Shown in pieces: positions 19,918 through 25,829 of a stretch of DNA of 64,000 nucleotides (the first letter of the stretch is position 1; each line of letters begins with the position of its first letter). The notes below the pieces were generated by a model that was not told the origin of the DNA, did not search any database, and saw only the letters and a program-made list of their open reading frames with translations. Made by a program: the position numbers and the translations under genes. This stretch comes from a bacterium (GTDB taxonomy: Bacteria > RBG-13-61-14 > DATKZS01): contig CAXXFL010000001.1 of NCBI GenBank assembly GCA_963674965.2, positions 1,152,001-1,216,000 of the forward strand, read 5' to 3'.

Positions 19918-20142
19918 AATGATTCCCCTCTCTCGTTCGCGAAAGGCAAAACCGATCCCGTCCGCTGAAACCATATTGTATTAAGAAGGACATGTCAATA
20001 GATCCCTCTTGCCGATTGTCAGTCCAGATATGCAAGCAGCAAAAATATTAAGGTTAAAAACAGTCGAATAATTATTGCCATCTTCACGGCTGAAGGCCTG
20101 AAAAGAAAACGAAGCTAGATATAATTTCGAACGCATGGTAAA

Positions 20143-21051
20143 ATGTATCGTCTAATAGAACAGGAAAAAAACCTCACCATATTTTCGTCTCAGTGGGAAA
20201 GGAAAAATCTTTTGGGAAAGAAAAGAAAAGTCGACTCCAAGGAGATCGGACTTGGCATAGCGCTGATCTTCGGAAAATACCTACTTCGAACGGAACATCT
20301 CCATTACGGTTACTGGTCCGACGGCGTGGAAGTACACTATCTTAACCTCTCCGACGCTCAGGAAAAATACTGCGAATTCCTGGCCTCGAAAATTCCGGAG
20401 GGTACAAAAACCATCCTCGACGTCGGATGCGGGGCCGGGTCATTTGCTCTTAAGCTTATTTCTCTTGGCTACGAGGTCGATTGCGTGTCTCCGCCGGGAC
20501 TTCTGACTGAAAGGGCCAGGGAAGTCCTCGAGGGAAAAAGCAGCGTTACCATCTCAGGCTTCGAGGAATTTTCCACCGACAAACGCTATGACCTGGTGCT
20601 TTTCAGTGAAAGCTTCCAATATGTCAAAATAAAACAGGCGCTTAAAAAATGTCTCGATCTGCTTAATAAAGACGGGCACATCCTGATTTGCGACTTTTTC
20701 AGGAGAGCGAACACTCCAAAAGGATTGTTGGGTGGAGGGCACAAGATTGAATTGTTTGAAAAAGCCATTTCCAAATTTCCCCTGGAAAACCTTATCGATA
20801 TCGACATTACGGAACATACGGCGCCTAACATCGACATATATAACGACTTTCTTATCAAAGTCGCCAAGCCGCTCATGGAACTCCTGCTTTACTATCTCGA
20901 GTATAACCGGCCATTAATGCATCGAATTATCAACTGGAAGTTCAGCCGGATTTTCGATAAGGTCAGCGTGAAATACTTTTCCAACGACCGAAACTCGGAC
21001 GAGTTTAAAACGCATAAAATCTATAAATGCCTCCTTTACCGAAGGACCTGA
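20143..21051 (+). CDS. Class I SAM-dependent methyltransferase (sterol/tocopherol MT-like); true start may be slightly downstream
   Basis: HLHYGYW, ILDVGCGAG, YDLVLFSESFQY. Confidence 0.88.
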   Translation: MYRLIEQEKNLTIFSSQWERKNLLGKKRKVDSKEIGLGIALIFGKYLLRTEHLHYGYWSDGVEVHYLNLSDAQEKYCEFLASKIPEGTKTILDVGCGAGSFALKLISLGYEVDCVSPPGLLTERAREVLEGKSSVTISGFEEFSTDKRYDLVLFSESFQYVKIKQALKKCLDLLNKDGHILICDFFRRANTPKGLLGGGHKIELFEKAISKFPLENLIDIDITEHTAPNIDIYNDFLIKVAKPLMELLLYYLEYNRPLMHRIINWKFSRIFDKVSVKYFSNDRNSDEFKTHKIYKCLLYRRT

Positions 21052-21213
21052 AGACAATCAAATTGGCATAGCGATAGCTTTTATAAAGGTCTTTTCCAAT
21101 CCCTTTTCTTGCCCGAGCGGACTTTATCCGGATCGCGTCTGGAATTTCTCTTGACGCGCGAATTATTCCGTACTAAAAGTATAGCCTCTATCGTGAAAAG
21201 GAGATGGTATGAA

Positions 21214-21420
21214 TGAAGAGTTTTGAGGTGGTAAATACTTCAACTAGGTTAGGAATGATCTATTGGAGTAGGCGGGTCGTGGGCTGGATCGTTTTCGTGA
21301 GGCTTATGACCTCGTAAAGGAGATTAGTCAGCCCCGCGACTGGAGCGCCACCGTAAGGCTAGACCTTGTATAGGAGTTTGGCGGCCCCTCAAAGCGTGTC
21401 TACTCCGACCTTAGATCAAA
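21214..21420 (+). ncRNA. Putative IS110 bridge RNA (ends approximate)
   Basis: Closing stem TGATCTA..GGAGTAGGC / GTCTACTCC..TAGATCA enclosing two stem-internal-loop-hairpin units that carry AAAGGAG (21316-21322) and ATAGGAG (21370-21376). Confidence 0.75.
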
Positions 21421-21445
21421 TTTATTTCTAGGGAGGAGTAAGGAA

Positions 21446-22462
21446 ATGGGAAGGTACATTGGAATCGATCTGCACAGGAATTGTTTCACCTCTTGCGTCC
21501 TGGCCGAGAACGGACGGAACTATCTCAAGGACTGGCGTCTCGAGGATTTGGAGAAGTTTTGCTCGACGCTTCGCGAGTCCGACGAGATCGCGGTTGAGGT
21601 CACGGGCAACGTCCGCCTTTTTTACGACGCCGTTCGCGGCCTCGTTTCCCGCGTCGTGGTTGTCAACCCTCGCCAGTTCAAGGTCATCAGCGAGTCGGTC
21701 AACAAAACGGACGGCAACGACGCCAGACGCCTTGCCCTGTTTTTGTCCAAGGGCCTTTTGCCGGAGGTGAGGATGCCGAACAAGGAACACGCTCAGGTTA
21801 AAAGCCTCACTCAAAGCCGGGACAAGCTGGTGAAGCTTCGCACGGCCTTGAAGAACAAGATCAACAACATCTGCTCGGCCCACGGCATCAACCTGAAGAA
21901 GGAATATCTTTCCAGCGAGAAGGGCCTTGAGACGGTGCAGGAGATACCTTTCGACCCCATGGTCAAGACCGAGGTCCGCGTCCTGGTGGAGCAGATTCGG
22001 GGCTTGAACGCCGGGGTCAAGGAGCTTGAGGCCGCCATCAAGGACTCGGGCAATCAGCTTCCCGGTCACAAGAATTTGAAGAGCATAAAGGGTATCGGGG
22101 ACCTTGGCTCGGCCATACTTTTGTCGGTGATCGTTGACGTCAAGGACTTCCCCGACGAGGGCAAGCTGGCCTCCTACTTCGGCATCGTCCCCCGGGTTAG
22201 CAACTCGAACGAGACCAGCCGCTCGGGCCGGATCACGAAGCGGGGCAACAAACTCGGCCGCACTACCCTGGTCCAATGCGCCCTCATCGCCAAGCGTTAC
22301 AGCCCTTATTTGTCGAGCTTCTACGAGCGTATCAAGGCCAGGCGCGGCGCGGGCAAGGCCATCATCGCACTGGCTCGCAAATTTTTGAAGATCATTTACA
22401 TCACTTTACAGGAAAACTTGATTTGGGAGGACTTCCCGAACGGAGTAATAGCGAAAGGCTGA
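21446..22462 (+). CDS. IS110 family recombinase/transposase
   Basis: YIGIDLH, AVEVTG, KTDGNDARRLA (DEDD); LKSIKGIG; SYFGIVP...S; ITKRGN; KAIIALARK. Confidence 0.96.
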   Translation: MGRYIGIDLHRNCFTSCVLAENGRNYLKDWRLEDLEKFCSTLRESDEIAVEVTGNVRLFYDAVRGLVSRVVVVNPRQFKVISESVNKTDGNDARRLALFLSKGLLPEVRMPNKEHAQVKSLTQSRDKLVKLRTALKNKINNICSAHGINLKKEYLSSEKGLETVQEIPFDPMVKTEVRVLVEQIRGLNAGVKELEAAIKDSGNQLPGHKNLKSIKGIGDLGSAILLSVIVDVKDFPDEGKLASYFGIVPRVSNSNETSRSGRITKRGNKLGRTTLVQCALIAKRYSPYLSSFYERIKARRGAGKAIIALARKFLKIIYITLQENLIWEDFPNGVIAKG

Positions 22463-22523
22463 GTTTGTAAAATAATTCAGCTAATTTAAAAGGTTGGGTA
22501 GACAACCATCATAGGAGGAAGCC

Positions 22524-23360
22524 ATGAAAAACCGGCTTACCGAGCTTCTTAAAATAGAGTATCCCATCATCCAGGGCGGGATGATGGAGATTTCCCGCGC
22601 CAGACTGGTGGCGGCGGTATCCAACGCGGGCGGCATGGGTACCCTCGGCCAGAGGATGGACCTTGCCGCTTGGCGGGACGAGGTCAAGAAAACCAGGGAC
22701 CTTACCGATAAACCCTTCGCCATAAACCTTCCCATGCATGTGCCCGACCTCGACAAAAGGCTCGATATCATCAAGGAAGAAGGCGTCAAAGTCGTGGCCA
22801 CCGCCGCCGGAAACCCGGCCCGAGTAATCGGCGAGCTAAAAGATGCCGGAGTCACGGTCATCCACGTGGTGGGGTCGGCGGCCCAGGCCGTCAAGGTCGA
22901 GGCCGCCGGGGTCGAGGCCGTGGTGGCGGAGGGCGGCGAAAGCGGCGGCATGGTGGGCAAAGACAGGGTCTCGACCATCGTCCTTGCCCCCGAGGCCGTT
23001 GACGCGGTCAAGATACCGGTTGTCGCCGCCGGCGGTCTTTGCGACGCAAGAGGACTCGTGGCGGCCCTGGCTCTCGGGGCCCAGGGCGTGCAGCTCGGCA
23101 CCAGGTTTGTCGCCTGCCTCGAGTGCGACGCGCCTCAAAAATGGAAAGACGCCATTATAAAGGCCAGGGACACCGATACTCATATCGTTCCACGAGGCAA
23201 GGCCCAGGCCAGGATGCTCAAGGACGAGGTAGAAAAAGGAGCCATGGCCGGCATCGTTGCGGCCAGGATCGATAAAATCGAAACGGTCGAATCTATCATA
23301 CATGAAATGGTGTCGGAGGCCGAACAAGTTCTTGCCCGCATAAAGGAGCAGATTTTGTAA
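22524..23360 (+). CDS. Nitronate monooxygenase / FabK-like flavoprotein
   Basis: IEYPIIQGGM, AVSNAGGMGTL, VAEGGESGG, PVVAAGG, GVQLGTRF. Confidence 0.92.
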   Translation: MKNRLTELLKIEYPIIQGGMMEISRARLVAAVSNAGGMGTLGQRMDLAAWRDEVKKTRDLTDKPFAINLPMHVPDLDKRLDIIKEEGVKVVATAAGNPARVIGELKDAGVTVIHVVGSAAQAVKVEAAGVEAVVAEGGESGGMVGKDRVSTIVLAPEAVDAVKIPVVAAGGLCDARGLVAALALGAQGVQLGTRFVACLECDAPQKWKDAIIKARDTDTHIVPRGKAQARMLKDEVEKGAMAGIVAARIDKIETVESIIHEMVSEAEQVLARIKEQIL

Positions 23361-23504
23361 GAAACCGTGCTATAATCGGGTCGATTGCCTATGGCGGCGC
23401 TTACCGCCTTTTAAGCGGCCGGCGCCCAAACGACTCCAGCGGGAACGGTCTTTTGGCTTCTGGCCGGAAACTCATTTCAACGTCTTTACCTACAGGGGAG
23501 AACC

Positions 23505-25829
23505 ATGAAAAGCGCCGATGAACTTATCGCCAGTTGGGAACCTCTTTTCAATCCTAGAAGCGTGGCCGTGGTGGGCGCCAGCAACGGAATCGGAAAATGG
23601 GGCTTCATCATTCCCATGAACCTCGTTACCGGCGGGTACGAGGGCAAGCTCTACATGGTCAACCCCAAGGAAAAGTCCATACAGGGACTGCCCACCGTGA
23701 AAAGCCTCGCCCACATTCAGGACGAGGTCGACCTGGTCATGGTCACCGTGCCGGCCCCTCTCGTGATTGACGTCATCGATCAAGCCGCGGACATAGGCGC
23801 CAAGAACATGGTGGTTATATCCTCGGGTTTTTCCGAGACCGGCGCCGAGGGCATGGAACTGGAAAAGAAACTCCAAGCCAAGGCCCTGGGGCGCGGCGTT
23901 CGGGTCATAGGGCCCAACACCATGGGCATAAGCTCGCCTCCCACCAACATGTTCGCCACCGGCGCCTTTGCCCATCCTCCCGCGGGCAACGTGGCCTTTG
24001 TCTCACAGTCCGGCAACCTGGGAGTGCAGCTTCTGGGCTGGGCCGCCGGCGCGGGCCTTGGCATCAGCCGTTTTATCGGCAGCGGCAACGAAGCCGTCGT
24101 CACTTGCGACCAGATTCTCGAATACTACGGCGCGGACCCCGAAACCCGGGTCATCATCATGTACCTGGAGGGGATCGACGACGGACGCCGCTTCCTCGAG
24201 GTTGCTCGGAAAGTCACGCCTCATAAGCCGGTCATCGCGCTTAAAATGGGCGCCACCGAGGCGGGGGCCAAGGCGGCGGCGTCCCATTCAGGGGCCGTCA
24301 GTACCCCTCACCGCGTGTACCAGGCAATGGTCAAGCAGGCCGGCATCCTCGAGGCCTCGAGCACCGAGGAAATGGTCAACCTGGCAAGGACCTTCGGTAA
24401 CCTCCCTATCCCCCAAGGCCGAAGGGTCGGCATCATGACCATGGGAGGCGGATGGGGCGTCGTGACCACCGACGCCTGCTCCAAGGCGGGGCTTTCCCTG
24501 CCCCAACCGTCGGCCGCCACCATCGAGGCCATCGACCAGGTGTTGCCCAAGTTCTGGAGCCGCGGAAACCCCGTCGACCTGGTGGGTACCGTCAATCGGT
24601 CCGCCCACTTCCGCGTGCTCGAGGCTTTGGTCTCCGACCCCTGCTACGATTCCATTATCACTCTCGGTTCTCTTACGGGCATGAAGTACATGCGCGACTC
24701 CCACCGCAGGGAAGGCCGCAGGGCCCTCCGGGCCATTATTAAAAGGCATGGCTGGAATATGGGCGGGTTCCTCCTTTCCATTTACAAGGGCGTGAGACAG
24801 GCCATGCAAAAGCGGCCCAAGAAACAGGTGATCGAAAAAAACAAGAACCAGTCGGGCGGTATCAACTTCCGCGAGGCCCGGCAGTGGAAGGACGAGTTGT
24901 TCTCGAAAGAATTGCGCAAGCTTATGCAGGCCTCGGGCAAGCCCATCGTGCCCGTTCCCTTCGAGCCGGCCACGGTGGCAGACATCTTCAAGGGCCTCGA
25001 ACTCGTGGCTTTCGGCATTCCCGAGGACGCCGTGGTAGCCATCTCCAAACTGGCCGATTACCATTCCTTTCTCGAGCGCCACAAGATGGAGTTGGAGCGG
25101 GACGACCTCGAGATTCCCAATGACGATATGGCCCTTGCCATCGGCAGCCAGATGATGAACCACTCCGGCGCCATGTCCGAGCATGAGAGTAAAGAAGTCC
25201 TTACCCGCTACGGCATCAGCGTCACCGACGAGCGGCTCGCCTCCAGCGAGCAAGAGGCCGCCTTGGCCGCCCGCGAGATAGGCTTTCCCGTGGTCGTCAA
25301 GATCGACTCTCCCGACATCGGCCACAAGACCGACCTCGGCTGCGTCCAAATCAACCTCGAGACCGAGGACGAAGTGCGCGAGGCTTTCAGGACCGTCACC
25401 GAGAACGCGCAAAAGCACGCGCCCAAGGCCAGAATTTCCGGTGTCCTCGTCCAGGAAATGGTCTCGGGTGGGACCGAGGTTATCATCGGCGTGTCCACCG
25501 ACCCCCATTACGGGCAGACCATCGTCTTCGGTCTGGGCGGCATCTTCGTCGAGGTCCTCGAGGACGTGTCCCTCCGCATCCTGCCCATCGAGCTGGTCGA
25601 CGCTGAGGCCATGGTCAGGGAAATTAAAGGCTACAAGGTGCTGGAGGGAACTAGGGGCAAGAAACCGAGGGACATCCAGACCCTGGCCGAAACCATCCGC
25701 CGCGTGGCCGACTTGGCCGATGACTTAAAGGACCACATCGCGGAAATGGATATCAACCCACTTATGGTTTTCGAAAAAGGAAAAGGCGTCAAAGCCCTCG
25801 ACGCCCTGATCGTACTGAAAGACAAATAG
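23505..25829 (+). CDS. Acyl-CoA synthetase (NDP-forming), fused CoA-binding and ATP-grasp domains
   Basis: FNPRSVAVVGAS, IGPNTMG, SQSG, AASHSG, NPVDL, GFPVVVK...HKTD, EMDINPL. Confidence 0.93.
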   Translation: MKSADELIASWEPLFNPRSVAVVGASNGIGKWGFIIPMNLVTGGYEGKLYMVNPKEKSIQGLPTVKSLAHIQDEVDLVMVTVPAPLVIDVIDQAADIGAKNMVVISSGFSETGAEGMELEKKLQAKALGRGVRVIGPNTMGISSPPTNMFATGAFAHPPAGNVAFVSQSGNLGVQLLGWAAGAGLGISRFIGSGNEAVVTCDQILEYYGADPETRVIIMYLEGIDDGRRFLEVARKVTPHKPVIALKMGATEAGAKAAASHSGAVSTPHRVYQAMVKQAGILEASSTEEMVNLARTFGNLPIPQGRRVGIMTMGGGWGVVTTDACSKAGLSLPQPSAATIEAIDQVLPKFWSRGNPVDLVGTVNRSAHFRVLEALVSDPCYDSIITLGSLTGMKYMRDSHRREGRRALRAIIKRHGWNMGGFLLSIYKGVRQAMQKRPKKQVIEKNKNQSGGINFREARQWKDELFSKELRKLMQASGKPIVPVPFEPATVADIFKGLELVAFGIPEDAVVAISKLADYHSFLERHKMELERDDLEIPNDDMALAIGSQMMNHSGAMSEHESKEVLTRYGISVTDERLASSEQEAALAAREIGFPVVVKIDSPDIGHKTDLGCVQINLETEDEVREAFRTVTENAQKHAPKARISGVLVQEMVSGGTEVIIGVSTDPHYGQTIVFGLGGIFVEVLEDVSLRILPIELVDAEAMVREIKGYKVLEGTRGKKPRDIQTLAETIRRVADLADDLKDHIAEMDINPLMVFEKGKGVKALDALIVLKDK

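Follow-up and report, generated by a model that had tools for sequence, protein, structure and literature searches.

An IS110-group insertion sequence that appears to home to Shine-Dalgarno sites, with a reading of its bridge RNA

A stretch of 64,000 nucleotides (nt) from contig CAXXFL010000001.1 (assembly GCA_963674965.2, positions 1,152,001 to 1,216,000 of the forward strand), hereafter the window, belongs to a bacterium of the GTDB lineage RBG-13-61-14; DATKZS01 and carries, directly ahead of a nitronate monooxygenase gene, an IS110-family element flanked by the pentamer AGGAG at 21199-21203 and again at 22513-22517. Taken as a whole, the evidence makes it highly probable that this is an autonomous, recently active insertion sequence (IS) of the IS110 group that homes to Shine-Dalgarno (SD) sites. 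The initial annotation of the window had placed AGGAG on both sides of an IS110 element and had proposed that both guides of its bridge RNA read as SD-like sequence, that it would target translation-initiation regions and that it hands the gene a replacement ribosome-binding site. The boundaries proved exact and recur at all copies of the element, and the remaining proposals are considered below together with the results that bear on them.

Inside the two AGGAG pentamers lie a non-coding stretch of 242 nt, a plus-strand open reading frame (ORF) of 338 amino acids (aa) and a right end of 50 nt (Table 1). The assignment to IS110 is borne out by the encoded protein, which matches PF01548 (E 2.5e-15) and PF02371 (E 1.6e-21) and scores 221.5 bits, over a cut-off of 140, with the NCBIfam model NF033542 ('IS110 family RNA-guided transposase'). 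Its residues D8, E51, D89, D92 and S254 align with D11, E60, D102, D105 and S241 of the IS621 recombinase (PDB 8WT6), named as catalytic in the IS621 structure paper. The element has the traits of the IS110 group: a DEDD RuvC-like N-terminal domain and a C-terminal Tnp domain with a catalytic serine; a left non-coding end much longer than the right one, with a structured RNA in it; and neither terminal inverted repeats nor a target duplication, the core standing at both junctions and once in joined ends. The left end ATGGTATGAAT holds a -10-like TATGAA with TG-N in front of it, identified by eye and not called in a scan of the tandem junction described below, and behind the host SD it opens a mini-ORF of five codons with its ATG at 21209.

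Table 1. Coordinates of the element, its RNA and the adjoining gene within the window
Feature	Position	Strand	Description
Possible host promoter of the monooxygenase gene	21151..21179	+	TTGACG-17-TAAAAG, picked out by eye; putative
Left junction	21197..21203	+	host SD AAAGGAG = left target + shared AGGAG
Element body	21204..22512	+	1309 bp; 1314 bp with one AGGAG; 10 copies 100% identical
Left end ATGGTATGAAT	21204..21214	+	right donor half-site; conserved in relatives at 63-85% identity
Bridge RNA core	21265..21406	+	long-range helix GGAGUAG (21265-21271) / CUACUCC (21400-21406) around two arms
Target loop, 5' strand GAUCGUUUUCGU	21287..21298	+	variable guide; G-U-tolerant complement of the top strand
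Target loop, 3' strand GU-AAAGGAG-AU	21314..21324	+	SD guide, sense of the left flank
Donor loop, 3' strand GU-AUAGGAG-UUU	21368..21379	+	sense of the right end ...CAT-AGGAG
Transposase (bridge recombinase)	21446..22462	+	338 aa, same strand as the downstream gene
Right end	22463..22512	+	-35-like TAGACA at 22499-22504; terminal CAT at 22510-22512
Right junction	22513..22526	+	AGGAG + spacer GAAGCC + gene ATG = regenerated ribosome-binding site
Nitronate monooxygenase-family gene	22524..23360	+	278 aa; PF03060, E 7.7e-57

In the genome that contains the window (6.5 Mb, 7 contigs) both end anchors of the element were located at 10 places, corresponding to 10 full copies with 100% identity, and a further 41-nt left-end remnant was found. 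All junctions of the copies read (A)A-AGGAG / element / AGGAG, with AGGAG at both ends of 10/10 copies, and the left flank is AA-AGGAG at all nine distinct sites as well as at the remnant. The remnant (L011; contig C6:1074153-1074200, minus strand) consists of the 41-nt left end after ...CCCAA-AGGAG, followed by unrelated sequence; since its flank is 79% identical over 179 bases to that of the tandem site on contig C7, it is regarded as a separate tenth insertion, made at a paralogous site and later truncated. The tandem itself is a head-to-tail pair (L005 1514-4123; C7:6724-9358) with a single AGGAG between the two units, and its internal junction restores the split promoter-like hexamers of the element ends. 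In the assembled contigs of the probable source runs, word depth is 159-178 within the element and 17-23 in the flanks. A contig from a second sample (run X3) links 22512 back to 21199 with five letters common to both sides, giving a unit of 1314. The single AGGAG in the tandem and in this joint of right and left ends (RE-LE joint) indicates that the pentamer is a core common to joined ends and targets rather than a target-site duplication. Low-depth contigs in runs X1 and X2 (depth 4.7-7.8; 1489 and 1897 nt) carry a diverged relative over 21297-21864, with 4-10 differences per 45-60 bases, presumably from another organism of the same sample.

The initial annotation had suggested comparing the flanks of other copies, and these place AAAGGAG ahead of a start codon at 7/9 distinct sites, with the same boundaries throughout. 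An ATG stands 5-8 nt past the right AGGAG at 8/9, and in seven it opens an ORF of 93-354 aa. The seven targeted genes encode nitronate monooxygenase, a zinc alcohol dehydrogenase, a cytidylate-kinase-like protein, a zinc-ribbon/DUF4190 protein, ATP synthase subunit c and two proteins without a Pfam match; in five of the seven the Pfam match begins no later than residue 34. At every site the transposase runs in the same sense as the gene that follows, and all sites lie in AT-rich, probably transcribed leaders. As a background, the same genome contains 6659 other AAGGAG and 2039 other AAAGGAG words, of which 10.2% and 13.0%, respectively, are followed by an ATG within 4-9 bases that opens an ORF of at least 90 aa. 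By our own arithmetic the binomial probability of 7/9 against 13% is P ~2e-5, which argues that something beyond the seven-base word ties the insertions to real gene starts. The copy ahead of the ATP synthase gene (L003 391-3160, contig C6) stands in the row a - IS - c - b, that is, within an operon. The a-subunit ORF beside it has only 108 aa, corresponds to the Pfam model's C-terminal half and lies directly against a gene for phosphoglucomutase; contig C1 carries another gene for subunit c, and the C6 cluster may be a degenerate second ATP synthase operon.

The same site class was found around relatives of the element. Of 8000 candidates scored in a protein search, 4599 were relatives at E<=1e-20; most of them are on contigs of 1.3-2 kb, a length to be expected of a multi-copy element. 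Among the 13 genomes of the phylum, none outside the element's own genome contained a relative at E<=1e-45, and the element looks horizontally acquired. The ends are the same (right ...CAT-AGGAG, left AGGAG-A[TC]G[AG]TAT) in transposase relatives at 32-85% identity that come from unrelated genomes and metagenomes, and the hosts of these relatives are non-mycobacterial and belong to several phyla. In genome G031 the relative is 34% identical and present in 17 copies, with an ATG 5-8 bases on in 16/17. In G019 and G041 (55-56% identity) the ATG follows after 7 and 6 bases and opens ORFs of 341 and 43 aa, and in G140 (33%) and G141 (32%) the elements precede ORFs of 254 and at least 95 aa. Eighteen metagenome contigs with transposases at 63-85% identity provided 14 distinct right junctions, in a tally that counts the right flanks of L050 (no ATG) and L057 as misses; 12 have an ATG within 3-10 bases, and of the 12 ORFs eight are at least 70 aa long or run off the contig and four are short. 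Two relatives at 28-29% identity (L016, L017) that lack the conserved ends were left out of all counts, and a peptide-pattern scan of genome contigs gave a single 29% relative, which was not used. The proposed targeting of translation-initiation regions is thus upheld at 7/9 sites here, in 16/17 G031 copies and at 12/14 metagenome junctions.

The 5' region of the element folds with a minimum free energy of -92.9 kcal/mol (z -4.30), and 0/200 shuffled sequences were as stable. An RNAalifold consensus of 13 relatives contains 29 pairs, five of which keep pairing with changes on both sides; both the long-range helix P0 and the helix P1, which closes the first arm, covary. Arm 1 comprises GGCUG, a 5' strand of 10-12 nt, a covarying hairpin (GAGG/CCUC, GGGG/CCCC or GGGC/GCCC) and the 3' strand G[UG][AG]AAGGAGA[UC]. 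Arm 2 comprises a covarying closing stem (CACC/GGUG, CAUC/GGUG or CUUC/GAAG), two bases, a covarying hairpin (AAGG/CCUU, GAGG/CCUC or AGGG/CCCU) and then G-N-AUAGGAG-N-N-U.

Three other candidate guides were considered against this fold. CUACUCC (21400-21406) was dropped as a right-hand guide, for it pairs with GGAGUAG (21265-21271) and the pairing covaries in the relative L043. ACCGU (21350-21354) is doubtful as a guide for the left end ATGGT, since CACC and GGUG/GGCG form a stem, which covaries as CUUC/GAAG in L043. An apparent match of CGUCUUC to the L043 donor was dropped on the same grounds.

Arm 1 was assigned as the target loop and arm 2 as the donor loop on the basis of the matches of the SD guide to the left flank and of AUAGGAG to the right end, and of the handshake behaviour. 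As the initial annotation had it, both guides are SD-like, namely AAAGGAG at 21316-21322 and AUAGGAG at 21370-21376. Where the SD guide begins with A, the flank has A at 9/9 sites in this genome and at 7/8 in relatives; in the group of relatives around L052 the guide is GAAGGAG, and the flank has G in 5/7 contigs and A in 0/7. The two handshake bases AU that follow the SD guide equal the first two bases of the element, AT, and in L043 the handshake is AC and the left end likewise begins AC. AUAGGAG is constant in 13/13 relatives, all of whose right ends finish CATAGG[AG]G. To judge from the strand polarity, the SD guide of the 3' strand would base-pair with the target's bottom strand.

No part of the RNA varies more than the target loop's 5' strand, of which the 13 relatives show 10 versions, set in conserved flanking RNA. 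In the window, GAUCGUUUUCGU is complementary to the top strand, G-U pairs included, over the stretch that opens with the third base of AGGAG and closes with the AT of an ATG six bases away. In the L052 group the strand is CCAUGGUUUUU or CCAUUGUUUUU; it carries CCAUGG and is the exact complement of a 7-nt A-rich spacer followed by ATG and G. A 7-nt spacer is found at 3/6 sites of that group, and two match at 10/11 positions including G-U pairs. Scores were taken in a register picked post hoc from 14, which differs between subgroups, register 0 suiting the L052 group and not the window's element and register -3 suiting the window's element, G031 and L043; they reach 8.5/11 at the site on contig C4 and 7.5 at the window site and at one site on C6. 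A score of at least 7.5/11 is thus found at 3/9 sites, compared with 1.7% of the 2039 other AAAGGAG sites (binomial P 3.6e-4) and 3.8% of the AAAGGAG sites that look like gene starts (binomial P 3.8e-3). Judged by these complementarities, the 5' strand probably reads the spacer and the start codon. The best-matching sites are, in the interpretation that is mildly preferred here, cognate ones, and the others would be partial matches that are tolerated, in keeping with the half-match behaviour reported for IS621 in a preprint.

A number of observations weigh against this account of the element and its RNA. Two sites in its own genome are not gene starts, one on contig C2 having no start codon and one on C3 an ORF of nine codons, and an ATG is missing at 1/17 G031 junctions and 2/14 metagenome junctions. 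At 6/9 sites the match to the 5' strand is at background (2.5-5.5, against a mean of 4.4), and the post hoc choice of register has to be set beside the three that exceed it. Over all elements, paired positions average 0.616 for cognate and 0.509 for non-cognate combinations of guide and flank, a comparison confounded by the base composition of the hosts and by one guide being common to 16 sites. Once the covarying stem of arm 2 is drawn, the 5' strand of the donor loop is only 2 nt long, and there is no clear reader of the right donor half. A scan of 20000-24000 against Rfam at E<=1 found no family. The RE-LE joint in run X3 may be accounted for by the tandem copy on C7 rather than by a circle. 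The promoter-like pair of the joined ends, TAGACA-17-TATGAA with TG-N in front, was seen by eye and is not called by the consensus scan, and among the contigs of three runs none skips the element to give an empty allele.

Some of these observations suit an explanation in which the RNA specifies only AAAGGAG and the excess of gene starts comes from the disappearance of cells in which a gene was disrupted, or from insertions where only half of the guide is matched. The sites with background complementarity and the two away from gene starts agree with it, and for IS621 half-matching substrates make up about half of the non-target insertions, according to a preprint. However, the copies are all 100% identical, which leaves little time for purging, and 7/9 against a background of 13% is a large excess. 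Such an explanation also has to contend with a 5' strand that varies most in an RNA conserved elsewhere and in one subgroup is the complement of spacer and ATG, and with high scores at a third of the sites against the low frequencies in both backgrounds given above. It is considered unlikely, though worth keeping in mind. Still less probable, and only slightly credible, is that initiation regions are favoured for their accessibility, through unwinding or transcription, with the RNA contributing only a short core: nothing supports this directly, the sites all being in AT-rich and probably transcribed leaders, and it predicts neither the covariation of A or G between guide and flank nor the constant sense orientation. 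That the direct repeat at both ends is a 5-bp target-site duplication left by a cut-and-paste transposase with a loose preference is refuted by the recurrence of the same repeat at 10/10 copies and in relatives from other phyla, by the single AGGAG in the tandem and the RE-LE joint, and by the protein, which belongs with the DEDD/Ser IS110 recombinases and not with the DDE enzymes.

On the preferred interpretation of an element guided to gene starts by its bridge RNA, the target loop would be programmed for the translation-initiation region, the 3' strand specifying the SD and the variable 5' strand pairing with a run of the top strand that begins in the last bases of the SD, crosses the spacer and reaches the start codon. 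What the donor loop would read is the element's own joined ends, CAT-AGGAG-ATG. With AGGAG common to donor and target, recombination would leave an SD at both junctions and the gene would keep its original spacer; if only AG is exchanged, the AGG before the gene would then come from the right end of the element and would literally be a replacement SD. The proposal of a replacement ribosome-binding site accords with the finding that AGGAG and the original spacer are kept at every right junction. Entering in sense, the element would come to lie in the 5' leader of a transcript or in the gap between neighbouring genes of one operon. On the plus strand no terminator-like site separates the transposase stop from the right end, the sole match (22492-22507) being on the minus strand; together with the sense orientation this suggests that host transcription should run through the bridge RNA, the transposase and the gene. 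Read-through expression of both element and gene, as well as a circular intermediate, would be expected from the sequence arrangement. The joined ends of G031 form a stronger promoter-like pair than those of the window's element, TTGACA-17-TATAAA, which also fails the last-base rule of the scan.

IS110-family elements that insert between SD and start codon have been known from the literature since 1997, with IS900, and IS901 is a further published case. In a genome-wide study of IS900 (PMC8141618), the target motif given from 58 copies is CATG-N6-TCTCCTT on the transposase strand, which is the complement of AAGGAGA-N6-CATG; coding sequence is rarely interrupted; IS900 and IS901 have no inverted repeats and no target duplication; and the host signals are said to serve hed, an ORF on the other strand from the transposase. 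The two elements, from the Mycobacterium avium group, thus share the site class of the window's element, the comparison being one of published descriptions and not of sequences. The possible novelty suggested by the initial annotation is therefore not sustained for SD/start-codon targeting as such. What differs here, judging from those descriptions, is the sense orientation of the transposase at every site, whereas that of IS900 is antisense to the target gene, the guide layout, which is mirrored relative to IS621, and the wide host range, the hosts being non-mycobacterial and of several phyla, in contrast to the mycobacterial hosts of IS900/IS901. An ORF of 282 aa antisense to the transposase (21428-22276, minus strand) recalls hed; it is oriented away from the host SD and initiation signals, whereas hed is described as aligned with them, and it may be a by-product of a GC-rich coding sequence. 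Within the literature searched, most subscription journals lying outside it, nothing was found that links bridge RNA guides to SD or start-codon targeting, nor any paper that links IS900 to bridge RNAs.

The likeness to IS621 extends from the same two recombinase domains and the aligned catalytic residues to a structured RNA with a target and a donor loop in the long left end, to loops that each read flank and core, to two bases after the guide that match the other partner, as handshake guides do in IS621, and perhaps to promoter-like hexamers split across the joined ends. Relative to IS621, the layout is mirrored: the left-side sense guides are on the 3' strands and the right-side antisense guide is on the 5' strand. 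In addition, five bases and not two are common to donor and target, and the donor loop has the short 5' strand noted above. Seen the other way, the module of RNA and transposase is turned round with respect to the recombination site's polarity. In that frame the first two bases of the footprint of the 3' guide would read CT, the core of IS621. This CT corresponds to the last AG of AGGAG and fits the one G031 site with TAGAG at its left junction, from which the crossover falls in the last GAG; the exchanged core is probably that AG. A further likeness is to site-specific IS110/IS1111 elements that aim at repeated host sequences, such as ISPpu9 and ISPpu10 in REP-like repeats; every copy of these, according to two reports (PMC12288879; 10.64898/2026.03.19.712850), lies in one recurring short host sequence. 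Those targets are genome-specific repeats, in contrast to the universal functional signal targeted here, and with such a signal the same element design would work in unrelated hosts.

It is proposed tentatively, as somewhat short of probable, that the elements form a widespread multi-phylum IS110 clade, with thousands of metagenomic relatives, in which the target loop spells the whole initiation region in a layout mirrored relative to IS621 and sense entry, with the SD regenerated, borrows host promoters for the element's RNA and recombinase and leaves the gene translatable, a host-independent safe-site strategy distinct from that of IS900. No new class of mechanism is opened by these results, which offer a first reading of how an RNA may spell the initiation region and an RNA-level explanation for the older observation on IS900 and IS901. 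They suggest that the guides of a programmable bridge RNA can be set to a universal functional signal instead of a repeat peculiar to one genome, which may explain the spread across unrelated hosts. The natural guide variants, as the 10 versions of the 5' strand in 13 relatives, provide material for the study of target-loop evolution and mismatch tolerance. For annotation, such elements would mark true start codons, and the genes behind them are probably still expressed.

Behind the right AGGAG in the window come GAAGCC and then the ATG with which the nitronate monooxygenase gene begins. Orthologues with 66-67% identity are present in three family-level relatives and start at the same ATG; the IS is absent from the orthologous locus in 3/3, and directly ahead of ATG AAA AAC the SD is AAGGAGG, GGAGA or AAAGGAGG, the identical spacer GAAGCC being found in one of the three. 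The empty allele proposed in the initial annotation is missing from the contigs of the three runs, and the start codon and ancestral arrangement that it implied are supported by the IS-free orthologues with an SD before the same ATG. About 20 nt upstream of where the element is inserted stands a possible host promoter, TTGACG-17-TAAAAG. Neither the window nor the tandem junction gave any call in the promoter scans; this pair is passed over because the consensus scan demands T at the sixth position of the second hexamer. From the arrangement of these signals, the element would lie downstream of a host promoter and the gene would still be expressed. The element of L045 in G141 (32% identity) also precedes a nitronate monooxygenase-like gene, with an N-terminus ending ...IIQGGMG, which is probably a coincidence.

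Some relatives depart from the window's element in their structure. In the G031 family (L015 1267-2574; L044; L045) the transposase frame extends upstream without a stop across the entire bridge RNA region, as far as an ATG lying 14 nt inside the left end, giving 431-436 codons compared with about 345 matched; this extended frame is found in three diverged elements and differs from the 362 codons of the window's element. The left end of L046 (83-364) is about 200 nt longer than those of other relatives, and in L048 the right-end motif is repeated at the end of the contig. L061 has a right end followed by AGGAG and five bases, and then its own left end without the first five bases.

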